This document shows, one piece after another, positions 24,242-53,161 of a DNA stretch of 64,000 bases. Numbering within the stretch: position 1 is the first letter of the stretch; each line of letters opens with the position of its first letter. This DNA comes from an uncultured Anaerolineales bacterium (GTDB taxonomy: Bacteria > Chloroflexota > Anaerolineae > CG2-30-64-16): positions 25,572 through 89,571 of the forward strand of contig CAYYTK010000017.1 in assembly GCA_964474695.1 (NCBI GenBank). The letters run 5' to 3'. Position numbers and translations under genes: made by a program. Below the pieces are notes generated by a model. It had not been told where the DNA came from. It was given only the letters and a program-made list of their open reading frames with translations, and made no database searches.

Positions 24242-24349
24242 GAATTTGCCACTTCCATAGATGGCAGTCTCGATACTGCGACCAAATGCTGTTCATGTCA
24301 GGTCTCGGAATCGTAGATTCGCAACAGCAGGCAAGGGGGGTAGAAGCGC

Positions 24350-25462
24350 ATGACTATGCCCATCCATCGCATCGGCGTCCTCACCGGTGGCGGCGACTGT
24401 TCCGGCCTCAACGCCGTCATCCGCGCGGTCGTCAAGACCGCTATCACCCGCCACGGCTGGGAGGTGATCGGCATCGAAGACGGCTACGAAGGGCTGATCC
24501 TCCCCGGTAAGACGCGGCCTCTGGGCCTGGCGGACGTCCGGGGCATCCTCCCACGCGGAGGTACGATCCTCGGCACAACCAACCGCGCCGACCCGTTCCA
24601 TTACGAGGTGGAGGTCCAGGCCGACGGTCAGACCAGGATCGAAGTACGGGATGTCTCGGACCAAGTCATGGCCCGGGTGGCTGAACTGGGGCTGGACGCG
24701 CTGGCGATCATCGGCGGCGACGGATCACTGCGCATTACGGTCGAGCTCATCGCCAAAGGGCTGCAAGCAGTCGGCATCCCCAAGACCATTGACAACGACA
24801 TCGCGGGCACCAACGTCACTTTCGGCTTTGACACGGCGGTCAATACGGCCATGGAGGCGTTGGACCGCCTGCATACGACCGGCTCAAGCCACCACCGGGC
24901 CATGATCCTGGAGGTGATGGGGCGCGACGCGGGCTGGATCGCGCTGCATGCTGGCATCGCAGGCGGCGCCGATGTGATCCTGATCCCCGAAATCCCTTAC
25001 GATATCCGGGCCGTGGCGGCCAAGGTGCAGGAGCGCAGCCAGCGCGGCACTCGTTTTAGCATCCTTGTGGTGGCCGAAGGCGCGCGACCCAGGGATGGCG
25101 AGGCGCTGTACCTGGCGGAGCGCGACCTTGGCGGCGCGCGGCGGCTGGGCGGCATCGGCGAAACGGTCGCGGCGCAGCTCAAGGCACTGCTGGATGTCGA
25201 GGTACGCGTCACGGTGTTGGGGCACGTGCAGCGCGGCGGCTCGCCATCGGCTTTCGACCGGCTCCTGGCCAGCCGCTTCGGCGCTTACGCCGTCCAACTC
25301 ATCGCAGAAGGCACACTCGGCCACATGGTCGCACTGCGCGATGACCTGCTGGTGGCGGTACGGCTGGAGGAGGCTGTAGGTCATCAGAAGTTGGTGCCGC
25401 TGGACAGTGATGTACTGGCGACTGCGCGTGGGTTGGGAGTGTGCGTGGGGGAAGCAGGATGA
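24350..25462 (+). CDS. pfkA: 6-phosphofructokinase (ATP- or PPi-dependent not resolvable by eye)
   Basis: IGVLTGGGDCSGLNAVIRAVV, IIGGDGSL, IPKTIDNDI, MGRDAGWIALHAG and LGHVQRGG are canonical PFK-A family motifs. Confidence 0.9.
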   Translation: MTMPIHRIGVLTGGGDCSGLNAVIRAVVKTAITRHGWEVIGIEDGYEGLILPGKTRPLGLADVRGILPRGGTILGTTNRADPFHYEVEVQADGQTRIEVRDVSDQVMARVAELGLDALAIIGGDGSLRITVELIAKGLQAVGIPKTIDNDIAGTNVTFGFDTAVNTAMEALDRLHTTGSSHHRAMILEVMGRDAGWIALHAGIAGGADVILIPEIPYDIRAVAAKVQERSQRGTRFSILVVAEGARPRDGEALYLAERDLGGARRLGGIGETVAAQLKALLDVEVRVTVLGHVQRGGSPSAFDRLLASRFGAYAVQLIAEGTLGHMVALRDDLLVAVRLEEAVGHQKLVPLDSDVLATARGLGVCVGEAG

Positions 25463-25501: not shown

Positions 25502-28500
25502 GTGACGATGGATGGACAAATGACGAGTATATTCCTCTCCTATGCACGCGATGATGACGAGCCATTCGTCCGGCGGCTGTACGACGACCTGACCGAGGCC
25601 GGATTCACCGTCTGGTTCGACCGCGTCTCCATGCCGAGCCGTGCGCTCACCTTCCTGCAGGAAATCCGCGACGCCATCGCCGCTTCCAACCGCCTCCTGC
25701 TCGTGGTGGGACCGAAAGCCGTCGCCTCGGACTACGTGGCGGCTGAGTGGCGCTGCGCGCTGGAGCTGTGCCTCGCGGTCACGCCGGTGCTACGGCTGGG
25801 CGACTACAACCTGGTGCCCCCTGAGCTGTCGGTGCATCACTGCCCCGATGCCCGGCCAGAGCGCCCCTACGCCGACGCGCTAGCTGAGCTGCTGCGCGTC
25901 CTGGCCGAGCCGGTGCCGCCCCTGGCGGCGCTACACGGCGTGCCATCGTTGCCCGCGCACTTTCTGCCCCGGCCGACCGACCTGGCTTTCCTGGACGAGG
26001 CCGTGCTGGCGGACGTGCGCGGGCCGACGGTCATCACCTCGGCCAGGCAGACCACGGCGCTGCAAGGGATGGGCGGCGTGGGCAAGTCGGTATTGGCCGC
26101 GGCCTTTGCGCGGAGTTGCGGCGCGCGCCGCGCGTTCGGCGACGGCATCGTCTGGCTGACCCTGGGCCAGCAGCCCGATCTGCTGCGGGTGGCGTTGGCG
26201 CTGGCTGCGGCGCTGGGGGACGACTTGGCCGAGTACACCGACCTGCAACGCGCCCGGAACCGCTTGCCGAAGCTGCTGGACGACAAGAAGTGCCTGCTGG
26301 TGCTCGACGACGCCTGGGACGTGGCCCACGCCGAGCTCTTCGCCAACAGCCTTGGCCCGCGCTGCCGGCTGCTGGTGACCACGCGCGACGGCGGGCTGGC
26401 GGCCGCGCTGGGCGCACAGGAGCGTCGGCTGGACGTGCTGGAGCTGGATGCGGCCTTGAGCCTATTGGCAGACTGGTCGGGCAAGGCCAGCGAAACCCTG
26501 CCGTCCGAGGCGTGCGAGGTGGCCGCCGAGTGCGGCTACCTGCCCTTTGCGCTGGCGTTGTGCGGCGCAATGGCCCGCGACGGCGCGCCTTGGGCCGACC
26601 TGCTGGACGCGCTACGTGAGGCCGATCTGGCGTTCTTGCAGGCGCAGTTCCCCAACTACCCCTACCCCGACGTGCTGCGGGCACTGAAGGTCAGTGTGGA
26701 CGCTCTGGCCGCCAGCGACCCGAACTGGGCGAGGCACTACCAGGAGCTGGCCGTTTTCCCACCTGACGAGGCAGTGCCCGAAGCTGCGATCGTCCAGTTG
26801 TGGGTGCACACCAACGGCCTCAACGAACGAACCGCGCGCCAACTGCTGACGACCCTGGGCCGCAAGTCGCTGGTGCGGCTGGAGGGCCAGGCGCCGCACC
26901 GCCGCGTGGCCCTGCACGATCTGCAACACGACTACCTGCGCGCCGCGCTGCGCGACCTGACCGGCCTGCACGCTGAGCTGCTCGCCGCGTACCGGGAGAA
27001 GTGTCCCGAAGGCTGGCACGCCGGTCCGAACGACGGCTACTTCTTCGAACGGCTGACGTGGCACCTGGCCCTCGCCGGTCGGGCTGCTGAGCTGCGCGAT
27101 CTCCTGCTCGACTACCGCTGGATTCGAGCGAAGCTGGGGGCCTCCGGGCCGGCCGCGCTGATCGCGGACTACGATGTCGCGTTCGACCTTGCCGCGCCCC
27201 GTGGGGCCGGCGATGAGACGGTGCGGCCGGTGCAGGGCGCGATCCGGCTGTCGGCGCATGTGCTGGCGCGGGATGTGGAGCAGCTGCCATCGCAGATCAC
27301 CGGCCGGCTGCTGGCGCGGCGGGAGGAGGAGATAGAAAAACTGCTGCAGCAAGTGCGCGACGAGACAAAGACGCCGTGGCTGCGACCCCTGGCGCCGACC
27401 CTGGACGCCCCTGGCGGCGCGCTGGTGCGCACGCTGACCGGCCATACCAGTGGCGTCCTGGCTGTGGCGCTCACGCCAGACGGACGGCAGGCAATCTCTG
27501 CATCGGGGGACAAGACGCTTAAGGTATGGGACTTGACAAGCGGGAAGGAGTTGCGCACCCTGGCCGGTCATACCAATGACGTCACGGGCGTAGCGCTTAC
27601 GCCAGACGGCCGACTGGCCATCTCCACATCTGAGGACACGCTCAAAGTGTGGGACGTGGCAAGCAGCCAGGAATTACGCACTATAACATGCCATGACGGC
27701 TGGATCAAAGCCGTGGCATTGACACCGGACGGTAGGTTGGCGGTCTCCGCCTCGTGGGACAGCACGCTCAAAGTGTGGGACGTGGCAAGCGGCCAGGAGT
27801 TACGCACCCTAGCCGGCCATGTCGGGACAGTCGAGGCCGTGGCGTTGACACCAGACGGCCGGTTGGCGGTCTCCGCATCGGAAGATGAAACGCTTGAGAT
27901 TTGGGACGTGGCAAGCGGCCAGAGGTTGCGCACCCTGGCAGGCCACACCGGGTGGGTCTGGGGCGTGGCGATCACAGCGGATGGGCGGCTGGCCGTCTCG
28001 GCATCATGGGATAACACGCTTAAGGTGTGGGACATAGCGACCGGGAAGGAACTGCACACTCTGGTCGGTCATTCAAAGGGTGTCAAGGCCGTGACGCTCT
28101 CTCCCGATGGCCGGTTGGCCATCTCGGGCTCAGACGATAGGACGCTCAAGGTGTGGGACGTGGCCAGCGGGCAGGAGCTATGCACGCTCGCAGGCCATGC
28201 TGGTCCGATCACCGCCGTGGCAGTGACGCCGGACGGTAGGTTGGCCGTCTCTGCATCGTGGGACCAGACGCTCAGGGTGTGGGACGTGGCCAGCGGGCAG
28301 GGGCTGCGTGCCCTGACCGACCATGCCGGGGCGGTCACCACAGTGGCGCTCACATTAGATGAACGACTAGCCGTCTCGGCTTCAAGCGATATGACGCTGA
28401 AGGTCTGGGATGTGGCCAGTGGGTCAGAGTTGAAGACCCTAGAAGGCCATGCCGGCCAAATCACGGCCGTGGCCCTCACGCCAGACGGCCGGCTGGCCGT

Positions 28501-29581
28501 CTCCGCATCGAACGACCATACGCTCAAGGTGTGGGACGTGGCCAGCGGGCAAGAGTTACGCACGCTGGAGGGCCATACCGAAGGTGTTCGAGCCGTGGCC
28601 CTCACGCCAGACGGCCGGCTGGCCGTCTCCGCATCGAACGACCATACGCTCAAGGTGTGGGACGTGGCCAGCGGGCAAGAGTTACGCACGCTGGAAGGCC
28701 ACAGTGGTGCAATTACCGCCATCGCACTCACAGCAGATGGGCAGCTGGCTGTCTCCGCATCGAGTGACCATACACTCAAGGTGTGGCAGATTTCGGCGCC
28801 GCATGATCTGAACCGCGTTCGCCGATGGCAGGCCCAAGAACCTTATGCGGACGTGGCCACAGGGATGGAAATGCACACCCTGGACGGCCATAGTTGGTGG
28901 GTCGAAGCCGTGGCACTCACAGCAGACGGCCGCCTAGTCGTCTCCGCATCGTTCGATGAAACGCTTAAGGTATGGGATTTGGCGAGCGGCCAGGAGCTAC
29001 GCACCCTGGCCAGCTATGCCTATGGGGCAACCTCCGTTGCACTCACACCGGATGGCAGGTCGATCATCTCCGCATCGAACGACCATACGCTTAAGGTGTG
29101 GGACGTAGCGAGTGGAACGGCGCTACGGACTCTGGCAGGTCGTGCCAATGGAGTCCGAGCGGTGGCGATCACACCGGACGGCCGACTGGCCATCTCCGCA
29201 TTGCAAGACAAAACGCTCAAGGTGTGGGACGTGGCCAGCGGGAATATGCGCGCATCGTATATAAGCGAAGGGCTGGCCACGTGTTGCCCGTCGAGTGGAG
29301 CCGACGGACTCTTGCTGATGGGCGACGCAAGCGGGCGCGTACACTTTCTGCGCTTGGAGAACGTGGCCTTCGGGCCGACAATCATCACTGCGTGGCAAGC
29401 ACCTGCGGCTCTCGATGTGGCCTTCGGCTGCACCCACTGCCGCACCTGGTCCGAGGTCCCCGCGTCGACGCTGGGCACGGAACTGCCCTGCCCCCGCTGC
29501 GGCAAGCCGGTCAAGCTCAACCCATTCGTGATCGAGGCGGACTGGCGGCCGGTGGCGGCCGCGTGGCGAGGTGAACGTTAA
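25502..29581 (+). CDS. TIR - NB-ARC (STAND) - 14 x WD40 - C-terminal Zn-ribbon protein
   Basis: TIR: IFLSYARDDDEPFVRRLYDDLTEAGFTVWFDR, LLLVVGPKAVASDYVAAEWRCALE. P-loop LQGMGGVGKSVLAAAFA and Walker B CLLVLDDAWD. Fourteen blades of the type GHxxxVxAVALTPDGRLAVSASxDxTLKVWDVASGQELRTL. Tail: CTHCRTW...CPRCG. An alternative ATG start lies at 25508. Confidence 0.9.
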   Translation: MTMDGQMTSIFLSYARDDDEPFVRRLYDDLTEAGFTVWFDRVSMPSRALTFLQEIRDAIAASNRLLLVVGPKAVASDYVAAEWRCALELCLAVTPVLRLGDYNLVPPELSVHHCPDARPERPYADALAELLRVLAEPVPPLAALHGVPSLPAHFLPRPTDLAFLDEAVLADVRGPTVITSARQTTALQGMGGVGKSVLAAAFARSCGARRAFGDGIVWLTLGQQPDLLRVALALAAALGDDLAEYTDLQRARNRLPKLLDDKKCLLVLDDAWDVAHAELFANSLGPRCRLLVTTRDGGLAAALGAQERRLDVLELDAALSLLADWSGKASETLPSEACEVAAECGYLPFALALCGAMARDGAPWADLLDALREADLAFLQAQFPNYPYPDVLRALKVSVDALAASDPNWARHYQELAVFPPDEAVPEAAIVQLWVHTNGLNERTARQLLTTLGRKSLVRLEGQAPHRRVALHDLQHDYLRAALRDLTGLHAELLAAYREKCPEGWHAGPNDGYFFERLTWHLALAGRAAELRDLLLDYRWIRAKLGASGPAALIADYDVAFDLAAPRGAGDETVRPVQGAIRLSAHVLARDVEQLPSQITGRLLARREEEIEKLLQQVRDETKTPWLRPLAPTLDAPGGALVRTLTGHTSGVLAVALTPDGRQAISASGDKTLKVWDLTSGKELRTLAGHTNDVTGVALTPDGRLAISTSEDTLKVWDVASSQELRTITCHDGWIKAVALTPDGRLAVSASWDSTLKVWDVASGQELRTLAGHVGTVEAVALTPDGRLAVSASEDETLEIWDVASGQRLRTLAGHTGWVWGVAITADGRLAVSASWDNTLKVWDIATGKELHTLVGHSKGVKAVTLSPDGRLAISGSDDRTLKVWDVASGQELCTLAGHAGPITAVAVTPDGRLAVSASWDQTLRVWDVASGQGLRALTDHAGAVTTVALTLDERLAVSASSDMTLKVWDVASGSELKTLEGHAGQITAVALTPDGRLAVSASNDHTLKVWDVASGQELRTLEGHTEGVRAVALTPDGRLAVSASNDHTLKVWDVASGQELRTLEGHSGAITAIALTADGQLAVSASSDHTLKVWQISAPHDLNRVRRWQAQEPYADVATGMEMHTLDGHSWWVEAVALTADGRLVVSASFDETLKVWDLASGQELRTLASYAYGATSVALTPDGRSIISASNDHTLKVWDVASGTALRTLAGRANGVRAVAITPDGRLAISALQDKTLKVWDVASGNMRASYISEGLATCCPSSGADGLLLMGDASGRVHFLRLENVAFGPTIITAWQAPAALDVAFGCTHCRTWSEVPASTLGTELPCPRCGKPVKLNPFVIEADWRPVAAAWRGER
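27428..29250 (+). repeat. 126-nt-period coding tandem array (14 WD40 blades) with very high inter-blade identity
   Basis: The periodicity is visible in both DNA and protein. It includes a perfect 103-nt duplication (28467-28569 = 28593-28695). Confidence 0.9.
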
Positions 29582-29624
29582 TCTCAGGTCTTTCCACGCA
29601 GGAGCAGGACAAAAACCCTGGCTT

Positions 29625-29653
29625 TTGACGCTGATGGAGCCATACGGTATAAT
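29625..29653 (+). promoter_or_regulatory. near-consensus sigma70 promoter TTGACG-17 nt-TATAAT
   Basis: The hexamers are read directly: TTGACG at 29625-29630, TATAAT at 29648-29653, with a 17-nt spacer. The site is about 90 nt upstream of the first gene of the AT-richer cassette. Confidence 0.5.
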
Positions 29654-29742
29654 CTTGACCTGACCTTTGTAATTGTATTCTGCCTCCGGCTTGTCCCGAG
29701 AGTCCTGGCAACCTCGATATATAGCAGGCATAAGAGGGCCCG

Positions 29743-30387
29743 ATGATGAGCAGTGGTGATGTTGTCGAGTATAGCCGCAAGGTGGGCCGCATCGTGTACG
29801 ATAGCTACGGCAAAGCACCTAAGGACGGCGGCTGGTCCTTTAGTGCCGACGGTACGCTGGAAGAAAACGTATACAAGGTCGAAATCACGCCGAACGGCGA
29901 TATCTTTGGCCGCCACGGGGACCTTAAGGACTATACTAAAGCTATCGGCCTTTCCGGTCAGCGAGCCGAAGGCATCGCGAACCTCGAATCCCATCACCTT
30001 ATTCCGGCGGAGATACTCGAACAGATAGGGATCGCCAAAGAAGACGGTATCGCTGTTGCTGTAGACTCCGTCGGCCATATGAAAGATATCCACGGTAACG
30101 GTGGCCTGGTTAAGGGTCTTCTCTTCACTGACATCGACCAACTCAAAAACTACTACAAGGAAACTTACGCCAGCCTGGGAGCACCCGAGTGGGCTGACAA
30201 GGTGGACGAGTACATCGAGGCCAACCGCGACACGTTTACGAAAGGCCTGGCTGCGATCGCCGATCAACTGGAAGCTGGCCAGCCGGACCCACTGGCCGAA
30301 CCCGCCATGGATGAAGTACAGGATGCTTCCGATGCCTTGGAAGCAGGCGGCGATGCAGTGAAGGACGTTGGCACTGATAAAGTATGA
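29743..30387 (+). CDS. hypothetical protein with xHH signature (possible HNH/EndoVII-fold AHH/SHH-type nuclease)
   Basis: ANLESHHLIPAEILEQIGIAKEDGIAVAVDSVGHMKDIHGNGG follows an HH...H...H pattern resembling my memory of AHH/SHH toxin nucleases. The C-terminal tail is acidic. An AGAGGG RBS is present. The + strand is preferred over the antisense ORF 29584-30267 because of promoter orientation and codon pattern. Confidence 0.55.
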   Translation: MMSSGDVVEYSRKVGRIVYDSYGKAPKDGGWSFSADGTLEENVYKVEITPNGDIFGRHGDLKDYTKAIGLSGQRAEGIANLESHHLIPAEILEQIGIAKEDGIAVAVDSVGHMKDIHGNGGLVKGLLFTDIDQLKNYYKETYASLGAPEWADKVDEYIEANRDTFTKGLAAIADQLEAGQPDPLAEPAMDEVQDASDALEAGGDAVKDVGTDKV

Positions 30388-30390
30388 TAT

Positions 30391-30858
30391 TTGACCCCGA
30401 GGGAGTTTGACGTGGAAAAACGACCACCCATCTTCTCACTACTCCTATTCCTGGAGGAGTTCGCTATGTGGCAGCCAGGAACCATAAACACCATCGTCGA
30501 GCGCTTTCTCCAGCTGGCGCTTAAGTCGACACCGGACGTTTCCCAATGGTTGACCCTGCTTAATCCGGGCCTATCTATCCTCCTGTTTCTGGTCACAGTG
30601 GGGGCGACAGTTGGGTATGTGCACTCGCTGCTCTACAACTCCATCAGCCCCGGCCTGATTCTCTTCATGAACCGACACTCTATCATCCGCTTCATCCTGG
30701 CCGGCCTGGTCGCTTTCTGGCTCTTGCGCCAGCTGATGGCGACGCTTTCGGGCGACGTGGGCAGCCTGATGGACCTGTATATCGACAAGTCCTTCTGGAC
30801 AATGCTCTTCGTGGGGATTGCGGCATACAAGTTCGTGTCCCCATCTCGCCAGGATTAG
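30391..30858 (+). CDS. small polytopic membrane protein
   Basis: Hydrophobic helices PIFSLLLFLEEFAMW, LSILLFLVTVGATVGYV, IIRFILAGLVAFWLL and FWTMLFVGIAAYKFV. The track uses TTG at 30391; an in-frame GTG at 30412 with GAGGGA 7 nt upstream is an equally good start. Confidence 0.6.
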   Translation: MTPREFDVEKRPPIFSLLLFLEEFAMWQPGTINTIVERFLQLALKSTPDVSQWLTLLNPGLSILLFLVTVGATVGYVHSLLYNSISPGLILFMNRHSIIRFILAGLVAFWLLRQLMATLSGDVGSLMDLYIDKSFWTMLFVGIAAYKFVSPSRQD

Positions 30859-30870
30859 GAGGTAGGTGCC

Positions 30871-31668
30871 ATGACACGTCTGGTGCTGATTCATGATGAG
30901 ATGGGGAGAAACTACCGACTGGTGACCGGAGAAAGCCGTATCGGGATATGGCTAAAGCGCACAGTTGAGCGGCGCAACACCGGCTACAGCAAGATCCTCG
31001 ATATAGTACTGCCCATCCGCCAGAGCGAGACCTTGGCCCTGGGCCAGATCGATGCCAGCCTGACGCTGCAGATCGACTGCCGCGATGGCAGCCTGGAGCG
31101 GACCCTCAACGACCGCCAACGTGAGTCGCTGGAGACCCTGGTTAACAACGGAGCCAGCAGCATCAAGGCGCATATTGAGACGGTAGTCAGCCACGTCAAG
31201 ATGCGCGCCGCCGTCCCTGGCGTCACCCCACTCGACCTGAATCGGGCGCTCAGCCTCATCTATCCTCACATCATCGCAAGGACCAGGGATGTGTTAGGGC
31301 TGGCAACCGAGGAGCCGAACCTGCCTTTCTTGTCCGTTCGCCTGGGCGACACGCTTAATCTCTCCCGATTCGTCGATCGCCTCATCGAACAGGATCTGAA
31401 AGATCGCACGACGCTAATCGAGAAGATCGCAACGCCAGAACTCACAACAGCCTATCCGCCGGAGGAGGAGCTGCGCATCCGCCGGGAGCACTACGAACTC
31501 ATAATGCAGCAGTGGCCCCTCTCCCTTGCGCCCGTGATCAGCGACCCAAGTGCCCTGCTGCCGGTTGTTGACGAGTACGCTGACGGGCTCATCCAGGACC
31601 TGCATGTTGCAGAACCGCCTGCCCCTGGCTTATTCGGCCGTCTTTTAGGCGGGGGACGTCAGAGATGA
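30871..31668 (+). CDS. hypothetical protein (no confident family; faint SPFH/band-7-like periodicity only)
   Basis: Strong AGGAGG RBS upstream. The stop overlaps the next start (ATGA at 31665-31668). I recognise no catalytic motif. Confidence 0.65.
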   Translation: MTRLVLIHDEMGRNYRLVTGESRIGIWLKRTVERRNTGYSKILDIVLPIRQSETLALGQIDASLTLQIDCRDGSLERTLNDRQRESLETLVNNGASSIKAHIETVVSHVKMRAAVPGVTPLDLNRALSLIYPHIIARTRDVLGLATEEPNLPFLSVRLGDTLNLSRFVDRLIEQDLKDRTTLIEKIATPELTTAYPPEEELRIRREHYELIMQQWPLSLAPVISDPSALLPVVDEYADGLIQDLHVAEPPAPGLFGRLLGGGRQR

Positions 31669-33470
31669 GACTCGCGTTTGCGCGCGAGTTGCGAATCACG
31701 GGCACCGAAATCCCTGAAGAACTTCAGGTCGCGGCACGCTCGATAGCTGGTCGCAACGCGCGGCTGCTCATTGCGAACGATGGGACACGATGCTGGTTGC
31801 TGAGTTGGGAGGGCGATCAACTTTACTCCTCCTACGTTATCCAGGCTGCATCAGTTGAACCCCGACAGGAACCCCAGTTCAATTCTCGCTATTGGGTTCG
31901 CCGGCCTCCCGAGCGATCAGGTCATAGTTTCCGTATCGGCGGCGTTGAGGTGGATTCCATTTTGACGTTGCCATGGGAGGAATTGTTACGCCGCAATGAC
32001 ACCTTTGGTGTTCTGGTACGCGCCACCAACACCCGACAGGTACCGATTAGCGACCGCGGCGGAATCGTGGAACTGGAGATCGCAACAGATAATCAGGCGG
32101 TAGCCGAGCAGATGTGCGTCTGGTTCGGCGGCTTCATCTCCGAACGTCCCGTCAGCACCTATGCCTACACGCACGAGTTGGTCTACTTCTTTCGCCCGCC
32201 GGTGCAGTCAGCCGCCTATTTTCCTGATGGCGTCCTGGTCACAACGCCTGACCTGCTGCAGAGACTGAGGGTTGAGCCTGATCTGTTGACCCGTCATATC
32301 CTCATTTGCGGCCGGGCCGGATCCGGGAAGACCAACACAAGCAAGCTGTTGCTGACTCGTCTATGTGAGACGAACCGCCCCAGGGGCATCCTCATCCTGG
32401 ACCCTCACGGCGAGTACGGCGATGTAGCCGCGCGGCATCCCAAGTGGAGCCTACAATGTATCGCAGCGGGGCGCGAAGGGAAGCAATTGGGCCGACTGAA
32501 CATCAACCCCTTCCTCCCTGCGCCTGCGCAAAACCTAGAAGCACATCTCGACACGCTTAGCACCGTATTCGCAATCTCTGCCTTTCGGGGCGGTGGGACG
32601 AATCTCCCCAGCTACATGCATCAGTTGCTCCGCCTGTTTGTAGCCGACATGTGGCGCAAACAGAATAGCTGGCCAGAGAAATCTCCGCTAAACCGCGCGC
32701 AACGTCGCGAAGTGCTGAGCAAGACGGGCCAAGAGGTCCGCGCAGCCCAATTCCTGGCCTCTCCCCGCGAAGGTCCTTCGACGCTGGACCAGTTGTGTGA
32801 CTTTTGGGACGAACACCGCCAGGCTATTCTGACCGAGATGACGGGCGGGCAGACAGGCAGCCAGAGGGCTGACCTTGAGGCGGTCATCACCGCCCGCCTG
32901 AACGAGATCGAGATGAGCCTGCTGCGCCACTTCGACTACTCGACCCAGGGCCGGAGCCTGGCTGCGCTCCTTCATACGCCCGCAGTGATCTCTCTGGAAG
33001 GCGCCTCTGAGGCAGATGTCGGCCTGCTGGTCTCGTTGCTCATGATGGGCGTGGCGGAGGCTGCACTGGTCGCACCGCGCCAGGACTGCCTAGAAACGGT
33101 ACTGGTCATCGAGGAGGCGCACCGTGTAATGCAGCGGCCCGGCCCCGAGTCGGCTGAGTTCCAAAGTGCGAAGCAGCGTCTGACCAGCACGTTTCAGCGG
33201 GCTTTCCGTGAGTTGCGGTCGCGCGGCGTGGGCCTGTTTGTCATCGACCAGAGTCCATACACCTTGATCGACGAAGCATTCGCCAATACCGGCGTCAAGA
33301 TCGCTCACCACCTGCAGTTACCGGAGGATCAAGAACGGATCAAGAAGGTATTCCAGGTGGATGGAGTTGATCTGGCATCGTTCGAACGCGGGGAGTGCCT
33401 TGTGAAAGTTGAGGGTAATCCTGCTTATCGGACTAAGATGCCGCTTTGGGACGAAGCTGCCGTGAGATAA
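31665..33470 (+). CDS. HerA/FtsK-superfamily (DUF87-like) P-loop ATPase
   Basis: Walker A HILICGRAGSGKTNTSKLL, ILILDPHGEY, Walker B VLVIEEAHRVM, and LRSRGVGLFVIDQSPYTLIDEAFANTGVKIAHHL. The ~200-aa N-terminal domain is unassigned. Confidence 0.8.
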   Translation: MRLAFARELRITGTEIPEELQVAARSIAGRNARLLIANDGTRCWLLSWEGDQLYSSYVIQAASVEPRQEPQFNSRYWVRRPPERSGHSFRIGGVEVDSILTLPWEELLRRNDTFGVLVRATNTRQVPISDRGGIVELEIATDNQAVAEQMCVWFGGFISERPVSTYAYTHELVYFFRPPVQSAAYFPDGVLVTTPDLLQRLRVEPDLLTRHILICGRAGSGKTNTSKLLLTRLCETNRPRGILILDPHGEYGDVAARHPKWSLQCIAAGREGKQLGRLNINPFLPAPAQNLEAHLDTLSTVFAISAFRGGGTNLPSYMHQLLRLFVADMWRKQNSWPEKSPLNRAQRREVLSKTGQEVRAAQFLASPREGPSTLDQLCDFWDEHRQAILTEMTGGQTGSQRADLEAVITARLNEIEMSLLRHFDYSTQGRSLAALLHTPAVISLEGASEADVGLLVSLLMMGVAEAALVAPRQDCLETVLVIEEAHRVMQRPGPESAEFQSAKQRLTSTFQRAFRELRSRGVGLFVIDQSPYTLIDEAFANTGVKIAHHLQLPEDQERIKKVFQVDGVDLASFERGECLVKVEGNPAYRTKMPLWDEAAVR

Positions 33471-33605
33471 GAGAGTGCGCGGCCACATCATTGACGCCGA
33501 TCGCTTAGCTGGAAGGATGTCACATTCGTGCCGGACACCCGTCGTCCCCGCACGGAGTAACTCTGCATATACAGGCTTGATCGCCTGATGCAGACGCCGT
33601 CTTGT

Positions 33606-33651
33606 GAGAGCCATCCCGAATGCCGCCAAGCAATTCGTTGGGATGGCTCTC
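33606..33651. repeat. 12-bp perfect inverted repeat GAGAGCCATCCC-22 nt-GGGATGGCTCTC between convergent genes
   Basis: Read directly from the sequence. No clear U-tract follows. It could be a bidirectional terminator or a protein-binding site. Confidence 0.35.
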
Positions 33652-33825
33652 GTCGTTTAAGCGCCACGGCGTCCGCACCTTGTTTGCTAAGGTGCAATTC
33701 AGTTGTCTGTTGCCATCTTACTTACTTTCGTGTAGGTTGTCAAATCACCTGTTTCCGCGCTTTTCCTCTCCTTCCCCCTTCGGCAGGCTTTGTTACCCCG
33801 GCCAGCCGGGCACGTAATTCATCCA

Positions 33826-36207
33826 TCACTCATCGGCTACCTCCGCAAGCTCTTCGCCCGCCTTGCGGAAAGACGGCCGGCGCCGCTTCGGTTTCGGCTG
33901 CTCTCCTTTGACGGCCAGGACCTCGACCAGGGTGAACTCCGAGCCGATCAATGTCGCCGCGCCGCGCCCTGCGGCTTCCGCGGCCAGCCGCGCTAGACCC
34001 TTCTGATAAGCATCGTCGGACAGGCTCGCCAAGAGACCGGGGCGCTGTTGGGCGATGGCGTGAGCCGCGGCCAGGCTGATCGGCTGGTAGAAGCTGTGCT
34101 CTCTGAGCTTGACGCCGAAACCCGCCTCGCGCAGGGCCGTGCTGAACTTGTAGCTGGTCCACAGCGTGTCGCGCACATAGACCCAGGCGTCCGGAAAATA
34201 GGTGAAGACCCAGTGCGCCGGCATCGCCGGTGGCATCAGGTCCACGAAGCGCCAGTAGCCGCCTGGCTCCAGGAGTGCGTACACCTGGGGCAGCAGCTCC
34301 ACGAACTCGGCCTGGCTCGCCATGGCCAGCGGCGTGTCCAGGCACGCCAGCGACCCGGCCGGGAGCGCCAAGGCCTCGGGCAGCGTCAGGCGGCGCAGGG
34401 TGACATCCGGCCACTTGCGGGGGTCAACGACAAGATCGGGCACGCCGGCGCGCGGCACGGCCACAACCGCGCCGCCCTCGTGCGCGCCCTGGCGCCGTCC
34501 GCGCAAGACGTCGCTCAGGGCCGGGCTGATGCGGGCGCTCGGATTGGCGGGCCAGGGCCAGGCCGGCAGGAAGGGCAGCGCGACCGGTTCCTCAAGGGCC
34601 GCCATCAGCGGCGGCAGGCTGGGGATAGTCAGGGCCTCAGCCGTGTCCGGCAGCCACACCGGCACGAAGCTGCCCATCTCGCGCTCGGCCAGCAGCGGGA
34701 TCTTGCGGAAGAGCGGCACGAAGGGCGCGGTCGGATAGATGAGCTGCAGGCGCCCCTGGGCCACGTCGACGCGCGCGTCCCGCAGCATCAACTGGGTGAG
34801 ATCGCGCTGATCACCAACCTCGGCGTCGTCCCACACCTCGGAGAGGGAGTCCAAGAGCACGGCCGCCTGCTTCACCTGCTCCAGGTCTTCTTCACTGGGC
34901 AGCCCTTCCAGCTCACGGCGCAGGCGCTCCAGCTCGCGGCGATAGATGTCCTCGTTCTCGGCGAAATCGCCCCGCACGAAACCCTCGATCAGCCGCCGCC
35001 GCGCGGCCATGAGCCGCTCGCGCTGGTTGGCCAAAGTCGCGACCTTATCCCCTTCGCCGATCATCTGCGCCAGCTCCGCCTGCCAGTCCGGCGGCAATTG
35101 CAAGAGCCGCAGGATGGCGCCGATCTGCGTGTGCAGCGGCTCGATGCGGGTGCCCAGCCGGGCGTTGGGACAGTCGTCGTAGCCCCGGTCATAGGACATC
35201 TCGCGGTAGTAGCCGCCGGTGTCCGAGGCCTGCGCGCGCAGGTTGCGGCCGCACAAGTGGCAGCGGGCGAGCTGGCTCAACAGATAGGGCCGTGACACGG
35301 TGCTCAAGATGCGTGAGCGGTGCTGATGGCGCTGCCGCACGCGCACGCTGGCGTCCCACATTTCCTCCGAGATCAGCGCCTCATGCTGGCCCTGAAACAC
35401 CTCGCCGACGCCCCGCGCGCGCTGTCCGGCCTTGTAGATCACCTTGCCGGCGTAGAACGGATTGCGCAGCATGTCCGTGACGGTGTCCTTGGAGAAGCGC
35501 CGGCCGGCCCGGGTGCGCCAGCCGCGATCGTTGACCATGTCGGCGATCTCGGCGAAGGAGAAGCGGCCGGTCACGTAGCGCTCAAACATGAAGCGCACCG
35601 CCTCGGCCTCGGCGGGTGCGACCACCGGCGCCACCCGCGCCGAGTCGCCGAACGCGTAACCGTAGGGGCAGACTGAGGCATTGTAGAGACCTTCGCGCGC
35701 CCGCTCCCGCTTCGCCTTCTTGGTGTGCATGCGCAAGATATCAATGTAGTACTGGTTGATCGCCGCGATCATGGTCAGCATGAAGCGGCCGGTCGGGCTG
35801 GAGAGGTCGAACTCCGGCTCCTTGACCGAGGCGAAGCCGACCTTGCAGCGGCCCAGCCGATCGAAGATGGAGAAGGTGTCGTAGACCGAGGAACGCGACA
35901 GCCGAGAGAGTTCGTGGACGATCACGACGTCGAACGCGCCCTGCTCAGCCGCAGTGAGCATATTCTGCAAGCCCGGCCGGTCGAGGGTCTGACCGCTGAT
36001 GCCGGCGTCCACGAACTCGCTGACCACGGTCCAGCTGCGAGCCGTGGCATACTCCCGGATTTCGTTCAGTTGGGCCGTGATCGAAAGGCCTTCCTCAGCC
36101 TGCATCTCGGTGGAGACGCGCGCGTACGCCGCGACGCGCTCGACCGCCAGTTTCCTGTCGCGGTAGCTTGTGGCCGGGTGACCTTTGCGAGCAGCAGAAG
36201 CCATCAA
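33826..36207 (-). CDS. large serine recombinase with ~300-aa C-terminal methyltransferase-like extension
   Basis: Resolvase catalytic region VAAYARVSTEMQAEEGLSITAQ, VVIVHELSRLSRS. Recombinase domain (YGYAF, MLRNPFYAGKV). Zn-ribbon CHLCGRNL...CPN. Coiled coil. The C-terminus then contains AEFVELLPQVYALLEPGGYWRFVDL, reminiscent of class-I SAM-MTase motifs. Confidence 0.9.
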   Translation of the reverse strand: MMASAARKGHPATSYRDRKLAVERVAAYARVSTEMQAEEGLSITAQLNEIREYATARSWTVVSEFVDAGISGQTLDRPGLQNMLTAAEQGAFDVVIVHELSRLSRSSVYDTFSIFDRLGRCKVGFASVKEPEFDLSSPTGRFMLTMIAAINQYYIDILRMHTKKAKRERAREGLYNASVCPYGYAFGDSARVAPVVAPAEAEAVRFMFERYVTGRFSFAEIADMVNDRGWRTRAGRRFSKDTVTDMLRNPFYAGKVIYKAGQRARGVGEVFQGQHEALISEEMWDASVRVRQRHQHRSRILSTVSRPYLLSQLARCHLCGRNLRAQASDTGGYYREMSYDRGYDDCPNARLGTRIEPLHTQIGAILRLLQLPPDWQAELAQMIGEGDKVATLANQRERLMAARRRLIEGFVRGDFAENEDIYRRELERLRRELEGLPSEEDLEQVKQAAVLLDSLSEVWDDAEVGDQRDLTQLMLRDARVDVAQGRLQLIYPTAPFVPLFRKIPLLAEREMGSFVPVWLPDTAEALTIPSLPPLMAALEEPVALPFLPAWPWPANPSARISPALSDVLRGRRQGAHEGGAVVAVPRAGVPDLVVDPRKWPDVTLRRLTLPEALALPAGSLACLDTPLAMASQAEFVELLPQVYALLEPGGYWRFVDLMPPAMPAHWVFTYFPDAWVYVRDTLWTSYKFSTALREAGFGVKLREHSFYQPISLAAAHAIAQQRPGLLASLSDDAYQKGLARLAAEAAGRGAATLIGSEFTLVEVLAVKGEQPKPKRRRPSFRKAGEELAEVADE

Positions 36208-36331
36208 TTACCTCCACACGGGTAAGCAGGCCGATTATACCCCAGGCCCGCGCACCTCCGTAAATCGCCCGGAACAGGGCGGCCTGAGACCCATCACAGG
36301 GGCAGGGTGGCGCCTCGCCCTGCCCCAGACC

Positions 36332-36442
36332 TCACTTTTTCTCGCTTTTCCGCCGCTTGCGCTTCTCCCACATCTCCTTGACCTTGCGTAGCCACTCGCG
36401 GCGGATCGCTACATCGGGTTTCGGACCGCTTTTTTGGCCCAT
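36332..36442 (-). CDS. 36-aa basic micro-ORF upstream of the recombinase (MGQKSGPKPDVAIRREWLRKVKEMWEKRKRRKSEKK)
   Basis: Hand-translated; it falls below the ORF-track size cutoff. GGAGG lies 8 nt upstream of the ATG, on the same strand as the recombinase and 125 nt upstream of it. Confidence 0.35.
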   Translation of the reverse strand: MGQKSGPKPDVAIRREWLRKVKEMWEKRKRRKSEKK

Positions 36443-36702
36443 CGGGCGCACCTCCAGGGTTGAGATGGCCCGCCGGCGGGTGTTTTTGAGCTCTTGAGGG
36501 TGTCAACTCAGTGCACTGAGGCCTTTACACCGCGAAAATGGCAACGACAGGCTGGTGCCTGCCGCTGCCAGATTCACAGCGTAAAGACACTGGCTGCTGC
36601 GCAAATCAACTGGCTGCACGCCTTTGCGCATTGCTGCACACAAGGGTATCATCCCAGAATTGCCCACGCAAGAGGCAAAAATCGCCCTACAGGAGCTGAA
36701 AA

Positions 36703-37155
36703 TTGCCCACACAACCCACCAAATTGCCCATAACGTCCGCACAGCGCCACAACTCGCCGCCGTATGCTGGCTTCGGCGCCGCCCTGCGGGCCTGGCTGCT
36801 GCGTGCCGACCGCAGCCAGCAGGAACTGGCCACTGCCCTCAAGGTCGGCCCCAGCACCGTGAGCCGCTGGGCGCAGGGCCAGAAACGGCCCGACGCCAGG
36901 TTGCTCGTCAAGCTGCTGGCGGCCTTCCGAGGCTGGTTCGGCGAAGAATGGAATCCGGTGGAGGCCCTGGATGCCGTCGCCTGCCTGGGCTATGACTGGG
37001 CCAAGGTTCACGCTGCGTCCGTGCAGCACTTCCAGCAGGGGGGGATGTTCAAGCCATCCAGACCTGGTGGGCGGCAGCTCGCCCCGCGCCGCACCGGCTC
37101 TTTCTTCCGCCGCGGCCCCTCCTCCAAGTGCCCCGCAGCGTCGAACACGCTCTGA
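36703..37155 (+). pseudogene. XRE-type HTH domain ORF, probably the frameshifted N-terminal part of an HTH/NB-ARC gene
   Basis: FGAALRAWLLRADRSQQELATALKVGPSTVSRWAQGQKRP is an HTH_XRE pattern. TTG start with AGGAG 7 nt upstream. After a G7 run (37038-37044) the plausible reading continues in the frame of the next ORF. Confidence 0.55.
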
Positions 37156-38075
37156 TCCACGACCTGATCGCCCAGCGCGGCTACCGCCAGGCGCGCTGGC
37201 GCGCCGTGATCCTCTACGGCCTGGCCGGGATCGGCAAGACCGCTATCGCCCGCGCCCTGGCCGACAACGAGCGCATCCGAGACGCTTTTCGAGATGGCAT
37301 CGCCTGGCTGGACGGCAGTTGTGATCCGGAGGCGGAAATCACACGGCTGTGCCAAGCGCTGCAACTGGCACGCGCGCCGGGGGAACGGTGGGTCGAGTGC
37401 TGGCGGCGTTGGGCTGGCGCGGCCGAGCACCGCTTGCTGCTGATCGTTGATGACGCAGTCTCAGCCGCTGGGCTGCCGCCGCTCATCGCGGGGCTGGGGC
37501 CGCAGGTGGTGGTGCTGATCACGACGCAGCAGGGCGCCGAGATCAGAGCTGAGACCGAACGATGGGTGCCCGCAAACGCGATCATGGAGGTAGGAATTCA
37601 CGGCCTTGCGCCCTCTGAAGGAAGAGCGCTGGTCGAAGCGGTGATCGCACGCCCACTCACCGATGCGGACTGGAACATGGTCCAGGAGATCGGCGAGCTG
37701 GTCGGCTGGCACCCCGAGGCGCTGCGGCTGGCGGCGATCGAGGACCGGGAGATCGGCTGGCAAGGGATGCTGGACGAGCTGCGGGCCGGCCGGATGCCGT
37801 GGCCAACGCTTCGCCGCCGGCTGTTGGGCCAGATAGCAGAGCCGGAACCGCGCGGTTGGCTGACGCTGCTGAACAGGGGCAGCGAACCTGGCGCCTGGTT
37901 CGACGAGACTGACACGGCGCGGCGCTGGAGCGTAGAGACCACCGTCGCCCGACGACGGTTGATGCTGCTGAGGCGGCAGGGCCTGGTGCGGGAAACAGGA
38001 GATCCGCCGTGCTGGCGCATGGAGCCGGCCCTGCGGCTGGCAATGGAGCGAGCTGGGCAGGGAGATGCAGAATGA
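37128..38075 (+). CDS. NB-ARC/STAND P-loop NTPase fragment lacking a repeat sensor domain
   Basis: P-loop ILYGLAGIGKTAIARALA, Walker B LLLIVDDAVS, then VVVLITTQ. Its frame is open upstream to the G7 run and encodes ...HRLFLPPRPLLQVPRSVEHAL, the usual pre-P-loop linker of such proteins. Confidence 0.7.
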   Translation: MPRSVEHALIHDLIAQRGYRQARWRAVILYGLAGIGKTAIARALADNERIRDAFRDGIAWLDGSCDPEAEITRLCQALQLARAPGERWVECWRRWAGAAEHRLLLIVDDAVSAAGLPPLIAGLGPQVVVLITTQQGAEIRAETERWVPANAIMEVGIHGLAPSEGRALVEAVIARPLTDADWNMVQEIGELVGWHPEALRLAAIEDREIGWQGMLDELRAGRMPWPTLRRRLLGQIAEPEPRGWLTLLNRGSEPGAWFDETDTARRWSVETTVARRRLMLLRRQGLVRETGDPPCWRMEPALRLAMERAGQGDAE

Positions 38076-38232
38076 GGAAATAAACAGCAAGAGAGACAAT
38101 TGCGTTTGTGTACAGGCGCTGCTTATGCTAGACTGCACAATGCAATTAACTGGCGAAGCCGACCAGGAGCGAACTGATCGGCTTCGCACCCGCCTCCTGT
38201 TTTTCGTTTCCGACCGGAGCGAAGTTGATCTC

Positions 38233-41200
38233 ATGACGGACCCCGCCAGCACGCCGTTGACTGTGTCAGGCAGCCTCCCCAGACTGCCCGCCGCTAAGTC
38301 GCTCTTTTCCCAGCACTACCTGCAAGCGCGCCTGCCGGAGCACGCCGAATGGGCCGCCGATCCGCAGCCCGTCTTCGAGGCGGTGCGCGCACTGTGGGAG
38401 CGGGCGCGCACCTTGGGCGGGACGTGGAACGAGGCGCAGACCGAGCAGGAGTTCGTCAAGCCGGTGCTCGACGCCCTGGGGTGGAGCTACATCGTCCAGG
38501 TGAAGGCGCAGCGCCGGGGCGGCAGCCTGACGCGGCCCGACTACGCGCTGTTCAGCGATCCGGCGGCCCAGGCGCAGGCCTATCCCCACCAGGGCAACGA
38601 TGACGCGTTTTACAGCCGGGCGGCCGCCATCGCCGAGGCCAAGTATTGGGGCCGGCTGCTGAGCGCCACCGATGCGAGCGGCCGCAACACCTGGAAGGCC
38701 GAGAGCAACCCCAGCCACCAGATGGTCAGCTACCTGGTGGGCACGCGCTGCCCGTGGGGCATCCTCACCAACGGTCAGGTCTGGCGCCTCTACAGCCGCG
38801 AGGTCAGCAGCACCGCCAGCGAGTTCTACGAGGTTGACCTCGGCCTGGTCTTCGATTTCCTCGACCCGGACAGCGGCCCCACCCCTGAGCAGCTCGCCGA
38901 CTTCAAACGCTGGTGGCTCTTCTTCCGCCGCGACGCGTTCCTGCCCGCCGCAGGCGGCGCTCGCGGCCGTTCGTTCGTGCAGCAGGTGCGCGAGGGCTCG
39001 GCCACCTACGCCAAGCGCGTCAGCGACAAGCTGAAGGAATTGGTCTTCGACGAAGTGATGCCGGAGATCGCCAACGGCTTCGTGGCTTATCGGCGCGAGC
39101 AGTTGGGCATCCGTGAGGAGACCGACGCCAGCCTGCACGAGATCTATGCCGCCGGGCTGAGCCTGCTCTACAAGCTGTTGTTCGTGCTCTACGCTGAAGC
39201 GCGCGATCTGTTACCCATGCGCAATCCGGCCTACCGCGAGCAGAGCCTGACCAGCCTGGCCGAGTGGGCGGCCGAGCGGGCCGACCGCCATTTGCCGCTC
39301 AGCGACACCACCTTCGCCACCCCGCGTTACGAAACGCTGTTGGCCCTCTTCCGGCGCATTGACCGCGGCGACCCCAGCCTGGGCATCCCGCGCTACGACG
39401 GCGGGTTGTTCAGCGCGGCCACGCCCGAGAATCGCTTCCTGGAGCGCCACAAGCTGAGCGATCGCGCAGTGGCGCGCGCCGTGGACATCATGGTGCGCGA
39501 CGCGGGCGAGCCGGTGGACTACGCCTACATTAGCGTGCGCAACCTGGGGACGATCTACGAGGGGCTGCTGGAGAACCGGCTAACGTTGCTGGACGAAGGA
39601 CGACCGACGAACGACCAAAGCGTCTCCGTCCTCCGTCCTTCGTCTTTCGTCACCCTCGTCAACGACCGGGGCGAACGCAAGCTGAGCGGCTCCTTCTACA
39701 CCCCCGACTTCATCGTCGAGTACAACGTCAGCCAGACCCTCGACCCGATCCTGGATGAGCGCGCCCCGCGCTTCGGCGCGGCGATGGACCGCATTGCCGG
39801 CCTGCGCCAGAAGCTCCGCAGCGCACTGGACACGACGATCAACCAGCGCCTGCAGGCGCAACTGGCTGAGGCCGAGCGGGACGCGCTCGAAGCGTTCCTG
39901 GGGATCAAGGCATGCGATTGTTCGATGGGCAGCGGCCATTTCCTGGTCAACGCGGTGGATCACCTGACCGATGGCATCATCCGGCGGATGCAGGTGTATC
40001 ACGACACCCATCCCGACGTGTCCTGGGTCTGGAACCCCGTGCAGCGGCTGATCGAGCGCATGCGGCGGGAGATCCTGGCGGAGATGGCGCGCCAAGGCAT
40101 CGCGATCGATCCGGCCCGGCTTGACGACACCGCGCTGCTGACCCGCCTGGTGATGAAGCGCTGCATCTACGGCGTGGACCTCAACCCGCTGGCCGTGGAG
40201 CTGGCGAAGCTGAGCCTGTGGCTGCACTCCTTCACCATCGGCGCGCCGCTCAGCTTCCTGGATCACCACCTGCGCTGGGGCAACTCGGTGATCGGCGCGG
40301 ATGTGCGGACGGTGGAACGCGCCATGAAGGTGACGGACGCCGGCCAGTTCGCGCTGTTCCAGGGGCCGTTCGCCGGACTGCTCGACCTGACCGCGGTGAT
40401 GATCGAGGTGGCCGAACGGGCCGATGCCACCCTGGCCGACGTGCAGCAGAGCGCCGAAGCCTACGCCGCGTTCCAGCGCCAGCTCCTGCCCTACAAGCAG
40501 GCGCTTGATCTGTGGGTGAGCCAGTGGTTTGACGAAGGATGGACGACGAACGATGAAAACGACCTGGCTTCATCCCCAGACGGAAGCACCCCTTCGGCAG
40601 GCTCAGGGCAAGCTCTGAGCGGAGCACGGCAGCAGTCCGCCGTGCGCAGTCGAAGGGTGCGGCGTGGCGATGAAGGGGCCGCCGTCGAGTTCATGACGAT
40701 GCACAGCGGCGACGTATTGCCCGCACTGCGCGGGGAGATCGCCGTAGATGAGCGGCATCAGGAGGCGATCGCCCGCGCCCGCGGCCTGTGGCAGCAGCAG
40801 CGCTTCTTCCATTGGGATCTGGAATTCCCCGAGGTCTTCATTGACCTGGCCGGCCGCGACTGGGCCGCGGACGGCGGCTTCGATGCCATGATCGGCAACC
40901 CGCCGTACGTGCGGCAGGAACAGGTGAGCGCGGCCAAGCGCTACCTGGCCGCGGCCCATGCGCCGGTCTACGATGCGGCGGCCGACCTATACGTCTACTT
41001 CTACCACCGCGGCTGCGAGATGCTGCGCCGCGGCGGCCGGCTGGCGTACATCGTCAGCAACAAATGGCTGCGCGCGGGTTATGGCGAACCGCTGCGGCGC
41101 TACCTCGCCCAACAAACCGTGGTGGAGCGGGTCGTCGACTTCGGCCACGCGCCGATCTTCCCCGACGCCGACACCTTCCCGTGCATCGCGGTGCTGCGCA

Positions 41201-53157: not shown

Positions 53158-53161
53158 TCCA

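Follow-up and report, generated by a model that had tools for sequence, protein, structure and literature searches.

In the anti-phage systems SIR2-HerA and DUF4297-HerA and in HerA-NurA, the hexameric HerA ATPase acts as the scaffold or activator of an effector enzyme. Here we describe a cassette of four genes, A to D, that appears to follow the same principle. It lies in a 64,000-nucleotide stretch of DNA (positions 25,572 to 89,571 of contig CAYYTK010000017.1, hereafter the window) from an uncultured Anaerolineales bacterium. Together with its promoter the cassette occupies 3.9 kb, and its genes are tightly packed on the + strand in an operon-like arrangement:

29743..30387, + strand: gene A, 214 aa, predicted effector
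30412..30858, + strand: gene B, 148 aa from GTG 30412, small integral membrane protein
30871..31668, + strand: gene C, 265 aa, predicted cytoplasmic alpha/beta protein
31665..33470, + strand: gene D, 601 aa, HerA/DUF87-clade P-loop ATPase

We propose that these genes may encode a four-part, membrane-anchored defence system of the abortive-infection type, composed of a HerA-type ATPase and its effector, a reading to which we give about even chances. Support comes from the conservation of the operon, the placement of D in the HerA clade, the toxin-type nature of A, the exchange of the effector in one locus, a link to the membrane, and the surrounding island of conflict genes. A first-pass annotation of the window had already suggested an uncharacterised, membrane-associated defence or toxin cassette combining HerA with a nuclease. 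The HerA-type D, the toxin-type A, the membrane protein B and the defence island agree with that suggestion, while for the HNH-type assignment of A neither profile nor fold comparisons gave support.

The cassette resembles SIR2-HerA and DUF4297-HerA in that a HerA/DUF87 ATPase and a toxic effector are encoded in one operon, with the effector first and no immunity gene. It differs in that neither SIR2 nor DUF4297 is present, A, B and C being without any match in PADLOC, Pfam or NCBIfam, in that B and C are inserted between effector and ATPase, and in that D has an N-terminus and a helical insert of its own. D also scores only 28-30 bits against the NCBIfam equivalogs for anti-phage HerA, for which the cut-offs are 800-850 (NF042943, 29.5 bits against 800; NF042944, 28.3 bits against 850). 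HerA-NurA, found in archaea and Deinococcus-Thermus, likewise encodes a HerA-type ATPase beside a nuclease partner, for which A is a candidate counterpart here, but the cassette has no NurA and does have a membrane component. The distribution of the cassette is moreover patchy and mobile, unlike that of a housekeeping function. The logic of coupling a membrane or ATPase sensor-motor to a nuclease is shared with type II Zorya (ZorAB and the HNH protein ZorE) and with Septu (PtuA/PtuB); one cassette locus, L011, carries a true HNH protein. However, the cassette has no homology to ZorA, ZorB, PtuA or PtuB, and its motor is of HerA type, not MotAB-like or ABC/AAA15-type.

MADS is an eight-gene operon, mad1-mad8 (bioRxiv 10.1101/2023.03.30.534895). 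PADLOC searches link D to the mad8 model (6e-18) and to numerous HerA models (2e-17 to 1e-6), but none of the mad models matches A, B or C. A literature search covering systems of HerA, HNH and membrane proteins, MADS mad8 and eCIS/DUF4157 toxins returned no account of the cassette or of the A domain. Judged by sequence, the gene set and the A domain appear to be absent from Pfam, NCBIfam, PADLOC and the literature found, and the cassette would belong to the general kind in which a HerA ATPase is combined with a toxic effector.

Conservation of the cassette and exchange of its first gene

Some eight to ten lineages with differing flanks share genes A, B, C and D in one and the same order, which answers the question of synteny elsewhere that the first-pass annotation had raised. 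The order A-B-C-D is found in loci L001/L002, L003/L004/L012 and L005-L010, in one contig of the JGI collection, and in every contig long enough to judge. Locus L093 carries A-B-C up to the contig end, L094 carries A-B and L092 is partial; L093 and L094 were reached via distant homologues of A. Across loci the guanine-cytosine (GC) content of the cassette ranges from 41 to 58 %, and the flanking genes are unrelated between lineages. HicB, HigB and HTH genes lie upstream in L001/L002, with an IS66 transposase downstream in L001, and a DDE_5 transposase lies downstream in L003/L012, an Anaerolineae contig from a metagenome-assembled genome (MAG). In the lineage of the window a WD40 STAND gene lies upstream and a serine recombinase downstream, the latter also in L006. 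Relaxase, replication or other transfer genes adjoin none of the cassettes. The first-pass annotation had raised the possibility that the cassette is cargo of a recombinase-mobilised element; a search for terminal or att-like repeats bounding such an element around 29400-36700 returned only short, imperfect matches at chance level.

All four genes are judged to be under purifying selection from the ratios of nonsynonymous to synonymous substitution against L005 (A 0.18, B 0.04, C and D both 0.13). Orthologues are very few. Among 5.8 billion protein clusters, A has 8 close homologues, C has 11 homologues and D has 5 close homologues (52-96 % identity); those of A and C that were examined sit in the same cassette. 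A survey of 185,579 species-representative genomes yielded a single ortholog, in an Anaerolineae MAG, and a scan of JGI metagenomes one further cassette ortholog. No cassette ortholog was present in viral contigs or phage genomes. Likewise, no close homologue was found on 72,556 plasmids, the plasmid matches being ATPase modules of 22-28 % identity without tra neighbours. The cassette was therefore not taken to be a phage or plasmid gene set, given the lack of any viral contig or phage match and the distance of the plasmid matches.

The most divergent cassette, L011, has the same four-gene order, with C and D 35 % and 39 % identical to those of the window and B recognisably related. Its first gene encodes a 133-aa canonical HNH protein (CxxC...HH...N...N...C..CH..H) without detectable similarity to A. 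The presence of this protein in the A slot points to a modular effector, and the comparison indicates that B, C and D probably form a constant core, with the first gene as an exchangeable effector. Since B and C are kept when the type of toxin changes, they cannot be cognate immunity proteins of A.

The four encoded proteins

From its sequence, D is assigned to the HerA/DUF87 clade of ATPases, with intact Walker motifs. It matches Pfam DUF87 with 59.3 bits (7.7e-16, cut-off 23.2) and HerA_C with 32.7 bits (4e-8, cut-off 22), whereas FtsK_SpoIIIE scores 15.6 bits, under its cut-off of 24, and TrwB just reaches its cut-off. The HerA/FtsK-type Walker motifs named in the first-pass annotation are present as quoted: Walker A, CGRAGSGKTNT, spans residues 215-225 (32307-32339), and Walker B, VLVIEEAH, spans residues 479-486 (33099-33122). 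Both motifs, together with many further residues of D, are invariant across 7 orthologues. NCBIfam HerA models also match D, far under their equivalog cut-offs. The PDB sequence matches are weak and all of HerA type, comprising Thermococcus HerA, YjgR, SIR2-HerA and TdpA, the best being the Thermococcus HerA of the HerA-NurA complex (9x1l, 3.8e-9). No transmembrane segment is present in D.

With respect to an N-terminal HAS barrel, which the first-pass annotation had queried for D, an hhalign comparison with a canonical HerA-like protein of 601 aa yields an alignment, at 99.1 % probability, that reaches N-terminally as far as residue 130 of D (template residue 72). The orphan part of D is therefore confined to its first ~130 residues, a lineage-specific region without detectable relative, and is shorter than the unassigned N-terminus of ~200 aa described initially. 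A helical insert occupies about residues 290-470.

Two other assignments of D were considered and rejected. The top NCBIfam match of D is the DNA-translocating ATPase CedD (3.5e-16), at 59 bits against a cut-off of 600, and the scores for the VirB4, VirD4 and TraD models come to 10-20 bits, where the cut-offs are 250-590. With these scores, and with no tra or relaxase gene beside the cassettes or the plasmid relatives examined, D is not a conjugation ATPase; nor does it group with the VirB4/TraG/FtsK translocases of transfer operons, as had been raised as a possibility at the outset. Assignment as a phage ATPase was dismissed for want of any phage match.

The nearest relatives of the ATPase module of D outside the cassette are DUF87 ATPases of 890-1040 aa with 23-29 % identity, which are widespread in Bacteroidales, in Anaerolineae/Caldilineales, on actinomycete (Streptomyces) plasmids and on an Anabaena plasmid. 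Dynamin/Leo-like GTPases are encoded beside them in two of the four loci examined (L083:5207-13427 and L099:4487-8898), and small uncharacterised proteins in all four (the same two, L021:7071-12678 and L098:5474-10855). No transfer genes lie beside the ATPases examined. We know of no system name for these loci. One contig from the Logan collection (SRR7615342, L095:298-5737) encodes in turn a multi-transmembrane protein of 178 aa, a transmembrane SPFH/Band_7 protein of 427 aa (Band_7, 3.1e-7, 31 bits against a cut-off of 23.6), a HerA-like ATPase of 908 aa, an A-family protein of 227 aa and an open reading frame (ORF) of 67 aa. The A-family protein, P0062 (E 2.6e-39), is encoded directly 3' of the ATPase, and the ATPase aligns with residues 204-585 of D at 99.2 % probability, spanning most of the insert region of D.

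The large DUF87 ATPases thus share with the cassette their position beside membrane proteins (SPFH in L095, dynamin/Leo-like in L083 and L099) and, in L095, an A-family toxin. They differ from D in a much longer N-terminal half, and their loci lack B and C: no homologue of either was found by profile searches of 97 loci or by hhalign against 13 neighbouring proteins. Counting L095, one or more membrane proteins are thus found together with a HerA-like ATPase and a toxin in two architectures that are not the same. This suggests that the cassette may belong to a wider, undescribed class of loci combining a membrane scaffold, a HerA-like ATPase and a toxin. It also ties the cassette to unexplored loci of Chloroflexota, Bacteroidales, actinomycetes and cyanobacteria that encode 900-aa HerA-like ATPases with SPFH or dynamin-like proteins.

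Gene A encodes the predicted effector, in which three parts can be distinguished:

residues ~1-45: cassette-specific N-terminal segment
residues ~46-175: toxin-type domain
residues ~176-214: acidic disordered tail

A has no family match in Pfam (E <= 1), NCBIfam or PADLOC, and sequence and profile searches of PDB sequences gave no match. When 1.84 billion representatives were searched exhaustively with a HMMER profile, an A family of 65 clusters at 50 % identity emerged. In many long members, of 620-1715 aa, including those of 1022-1715 aa, the core of ~120-170 residues stands at the C-terminal end. A Pfam scan of the 65 members (E <= 0.1) found eCIS_core/DUF4157 in 4, WXG100 in 2 and Ntox1 in 1, and PG_binding_1 and further domains were also seen. 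One of the eCIS_core proteins, P0099, is encoded next to the tube gene of a contractile tail (Phage_T4_gp19), with an ORF of 103 aa after it. This company shows the core of A to be a toxin warhead domain of polymorphic-toxin type. The domain would be an unannotated one with an E-[AS]-H-H-L...H...Y signature and ~65 clusters, occurring as a warhead of extracellular contractile injection systems (eCIS), in WXG100 proteins and as a putative intracellular effector.

Small ORFs lie 3' of the A-family proteins P0099, P0062 and P0065. In the last case (L096:470-1266 and L097:254-1137) a stand-alone A-family protein of 230 aa is followed, with a 4-nt overlap, by a small ORF that is not B-like. These two may form a classical toxin-immunity pair.

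In an alignment of 58 sequences, the A-family core is defined by G52, G56, E82, [AS]83, H84, H85, L86, H112, Y142 and E149-W150. H84 is present in 57 of the 58 sequences, H85 in 56 and H112 in all; H117 is conserved in the cassette clade only, and no Asn is conserved family-wide. The motifs ESHHLIPAE (residues 82-90) and GHMKDIH (residues 111-117) occur in A just as first quoted. With its E-[AS]-H-H-L-x-P motif and an interval of 27 residues between H85 and H112, the family recalls AHH or colicin-type HH...N...H sites, a likeness that was not confirmed. In this respect, and in forming a C-terminal module in long members with E-[AS]-H-H-L and an invariant His, the A domain is similar to the AHH/SHH/LHH/GHH polymorphic toxins and to the warheads of eCIS and of type VII secretion systems. 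It differs from the AHH/SHH/LHH/GHH domains in having no Pfam toxin or HNH match, no conserved Asn and no match to a His-Me finger fold. Compared with polymorphic toxins, the A protein of the cassette is free-standing, with neither a trafficking domain nor an immunity gene beside it; specifically, it has no WXG100 or LXG domain and no signal peptide.

The AlphaFold model of A has a pLDDT of 71, with one of five models confident. It places the HH pair at the end of a strand (residues 81-85), followed by a helix (89-95) and a second strand (103-108), and the segment with H112 and H117 is disordered with low confidence. Foldseek searches of the PDB with this model gave no match with E < 0.7 and no His-Me finger. 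No HNH-superfamily model is among the Pfam families listed for the 65 A-family members (E <= 0.1), and hhalign of A against the HNH protein of L011 gives 0.3 % probability. The first-pass assignment of A to the HNH/EndoVII AHH/SHH nucleases is thus left without a Pfam match, a PDB fold match or any alignment to a true HNH protein. Our leading guess is nevertheless that A may be a nuclease, because of its motif and because an HNH protein replaces it in L011.

The tail of A (residues ~174-214, 30262-30387) has a net charge of -10. All cassette effectors, including the HNH protein of L011 (L011:352-486), end in a disordered acidic tail of ~40 aa with a net charge of -3 to -13, rich in Ser, Pro, Asp and Glu. 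These tails may serve as a docking or autoinhibitory element.

Protein B has two strong hydrophobic segments and one or two weaker ones, giving 2-4 helices. Of the three to four transmembrane segments predicted at first, two are therefore well marked; the remaining one or two are weak, so that the full count is plausible but unproven. B matches no family in Pfam, NCBIfam or PADLOC. A B-like gene is present in every cassette locus that covers the position, including the HNH variant L011 and the loci L093 and L094.

Protein C has no relative in Pfam, NCBIfam or PADLOC, nor among PDB sequences by sequence or profile search, in line with the earlier failure to assign it a family. Its AlphaFold model has a pLDDT of 80, with all five models in agreement, and consists of a sheet of about seven beta-strands packed on long helices. 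The protein ends in a conserved PGxFGRLxG motif. Foldseek comparison of the model with the PDB and BFVD returned nothing significant. NurA chains occurred among the matches at E 0.1-0.6 and TM-scores of 0.10-0.16, which we treat as noise; with no sequence or profile signal and no NurA Pfam match, identification of C as NurA was rejected. The suggestion that C might be an SPFH protein was also abandoned, as C has no Band_7 or other Pfam match, the 50 top Foldseek matches displayed include no SPFH structure, and the probability that hhalign assigns to an alignment of C with the true SPFH protein of L095 is 0.2 %.

One homologue, P0052, is an in-frame fusion of B and C with a 13-residue linker, in which the B part has a partial internal duplication. 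It is a single observation on one short contig (ENA, 1777 bp), so that an assembly or sequencing artefact is possible. This fusion suggests that C may work at the cytoplasmic end of B.

Proposed function and its alternatives

By analogy with the way HerA serves its SIR2, DUF4297 and NurA partners, we infer the assembly, trigger, target and outcome of the system as follows. B would tether C to the membrane on its cytoplasmic side, and C would recruit or regulate the D hexamer; C and D are probably translationally coupled through the ATGA at which their genes overlap. D would in turn scaffold the effector A and keep it inactive. Since the cassette has no cognate immunity gene and B and C persist through the exchange of toxin, the complex itself would have to keep the toxin in check. 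Foreign DNA or another cue of infection would then engage the complex, and ATP-driven activity of D would free or activate A. The activated effector would destroy nucleic acid or another essential target, stopping the invader or the infected cell.

Should the defence reading hold, HerA-centred immunity would extend past the two-gene SIR2 and DUF4297 systems to a four-part, membrane-anchored design with interchangeable effectors. The small size of the cassette (3.9 kb) makes it experimentally tractable. Its impact is limited by rarity and by the fact that the functional steps are deduced ones.

Several observations weigh against defence. Within the cassette PADLOC recognises D alone, and by generic HerA models. 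Neither C nor the N-terminal domain of D appears to hint at a sensor function. Domains of the A family elsewhere belong to offensive, exported toxins, which fits competition as well as defence, and what remains of the HNH/AHH/SHH assignment of A, after the Pfam, PDB, AlphaFold, Foldseek and hhalign comparisons, is the resemblance of its motif. The cassette is extremely rare, with one ortholog in the 185,579 species-representative genomes, and because of this rarity its enrichment in defence islands is not statistically computable. Its own location in such an island is no more than suggestive.

The same parts could instead form a toxin-export machine for bacterial competition, with D as the motor that reads the acidic tail of A, B as the channel and C as the adaptor, much as EssC/EccC handle type VII substrates. 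We consider this unlikely. The A domain does occur elsewhere on proteins with eCIS_core and WXG100 trafficking domains, the marks of delivered toxins; the A family and the HNH protein of L011, although not homologous, share acidic tails that might be a recognition signal; and both the membrane protein B and the B-C fusion put the apparatus at the membrane. Against export, the cassette has no immunity gene, and B and C, being conserved across the change of toxin, are not cognate immunity proteins. D furthermore belongs with HerA/DUF87 (59 bits), not with the FtsK_SpoIIIE clade of type VII secretion (15.6 bits), and has no transmembrane segment, and A carries none of the export signals looked for (WXG100, LXG, signal peptide). 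A variant that combines elements of both readings is still less probable: B-C-D would be a minimal membrane machine whose HerA motor grips the shared acidic tails, threading effectors out or deploying them against entering DNA. If true, the HerA motor would be used in a new way, and an uncharacterised family of toxin domains would acquire a function.

The HerA-FtsK superfamily also includes DNA pumps, and B-C-D could be imagined as a membrane DNA pump of a mobile element, serving transfer or uptake and comparable to TraB/FtsK of actinomycete conjugation, Thermus TdtA or archaeal Ced, with A or the HNH protein processing the DNA. The probability that we give to DNA translocation is as low as that of the tail-gripping machine. 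Although CedD is the best NCBIfam match of D and the apparatus is linked to the membrane, the scores of CedD and of the VirB4, VirD4 and TraD models fall far short of their cut-offs, as given above, and relaxase, replication and transfer genes are absent beside all cassettes. A recombinase or transposase does lie directly downstream in three lineages (serine recombinase, IS66 and DDE_5), but these mobility genes are of three unrelated types, and the cassette is therefore not tied to one element. The lack of close homologues on plasmids or in phages and the use of the A domain as a toxin warhead elsewhere also count against a pump. Least probable of all, in our estimate, is an addiction module, similar to toxin-antitoxin systems, that would stabilise a genomic island, in which A would be a toxin held continuously neutralised by one partner among B, C and D. 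The A family does behave as a toxin domain, the cassette of L001/L002 sits among classical toxin-antitoxin genes, and mobile-element genes accompany the cassette. Nevertheless, a 601-aa ATPase and two conserved proteins exceed what an antitoxin needs, and B, C and D remain the same in kind when an unrelated HNH protein replaces the toxin, a constancy that argues against a specific toxin-antitoxin pairing.

Locus structure and genomic surroundings

Besides its four genes, the cassette region comprises a promoter, an inverted repeat and a convergent neighbour:

29625..29653, + strand: predicted sigma-70-type promoter TTGACG-17-TATAAT, 90 nt 5' of gene A
33607..33651, + strand: perfect 12-bp inverted repeat (extended stem 33603-33654), 137 nt past the stop codon of D
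33826..36207, - strand: large serine recombinase, 793 aa, with Resolvase and Recombinase domains

The spacing of the genes is as close as first described, with one revision. Gene B starts at TTG 30391 in the list of ORFs, and this start was moved to GTG 30412 because of the N-termini of its orthologues (MEK[RS]PP...) and of a ribosome-binding site, GAGGGAG, 6 nt upstream; the gap between A and B, initially left as a range, is therefore 24 nt. B and C are separated by 12 nt, with an AGGAGG that overlaps the stop codon of B, and C and D overlap by the ATGA.

The near-perfect promoter reported at 29625-29653 scores 11/12 in a consensus scan. Both hexamers are intact in a close relative from another sample, L005 (D 96 % and A 93 % identical), and we infer that the site acts as a promoter. 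Conservation is confined to L005, as no comparable consensus promoter was found at the distant orthologous loci L002 and L003. The inverted repeat at the end of the cassette and the convergent recombinase are likewise both present. The arms of the repeat, GAGAGCCATCCC (33607-33618) and GGGATGGCTCTC (33640-33651), fold with -31.5 kcal/mol (z = -4.8), a value that 0 shuffles matched. The repeat is a probable transcript-end hairpin and a putative terminator, followed by no more than a weak T-run. In the convergent intergenic region, a promoter-like TTGACA-17-TAAGAT (33715-33743, - strand, 10/12) is aimed at the 3' end of D; this site could be an antisense promoter, the promoter of a small ORF, or a chance occurrence. 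The serine recombinase is counted here as a neighbour of the cassette.

The cassette has a GC content of 57.9 % (gene A 55.0 %, gene B 55.7 %), compared with 66.6 % for the upstream gene, 67.8 % for the recombinase and 61.6 % for the whole window. The drop in composition noted earlier is thus real, but smaller than hand counts of ~55 against ~75 % had indicated. Among equal-sized windows the cassette lies at the 10th percentile, and the 64-kb window overall is a mosaic of 52-72 % GC.

From its annotated domains, the 64-kb window is assessed as a dense island of conflict and defence genes. TIR and STAND genes are exceptionally dense at 9991-19093, 25502-29581 and 43367-63049. The window contains five giant WD40-repeat proteins of 1279-1884 aa, four of them with an N-terminal TIR domain and two with an nSTAND1 NTPase, as well as a stand-alone TIR protein, a TIR-STAND protein, a caspase-TIR protein, and NB-ARC and TPR genes. 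Near the start of the window, a DUF1156 protein (975 aa, 2754-5681) and a DUF499 protein (945 aa, 7078-9915) are encoded on either side of a 215-aa ORF; the pair presumably corresponds to a predicted methylase/ATPase defence module.

At 19244-25462, a phosphofructokinase gene (1.4e-105) comes immediately after the genes for two other proteins, one TrkA_N-RyR and one RelA/SpoT-SLOG(LSDAT)-RyR, and it is odd to find such a housekeeping-type gene inside a nucleotide-signalling conflict locus. Finally, at 37128-42432, the gene for an AAA_16/AAA_22 ATPase of 315 aa overlaps the start of the gene for a 1455-aa Eco57I/DrmMI/type IIG-like methylase-nuclease, which matches the DrmMI model of PADLOC at 5.9e-85.

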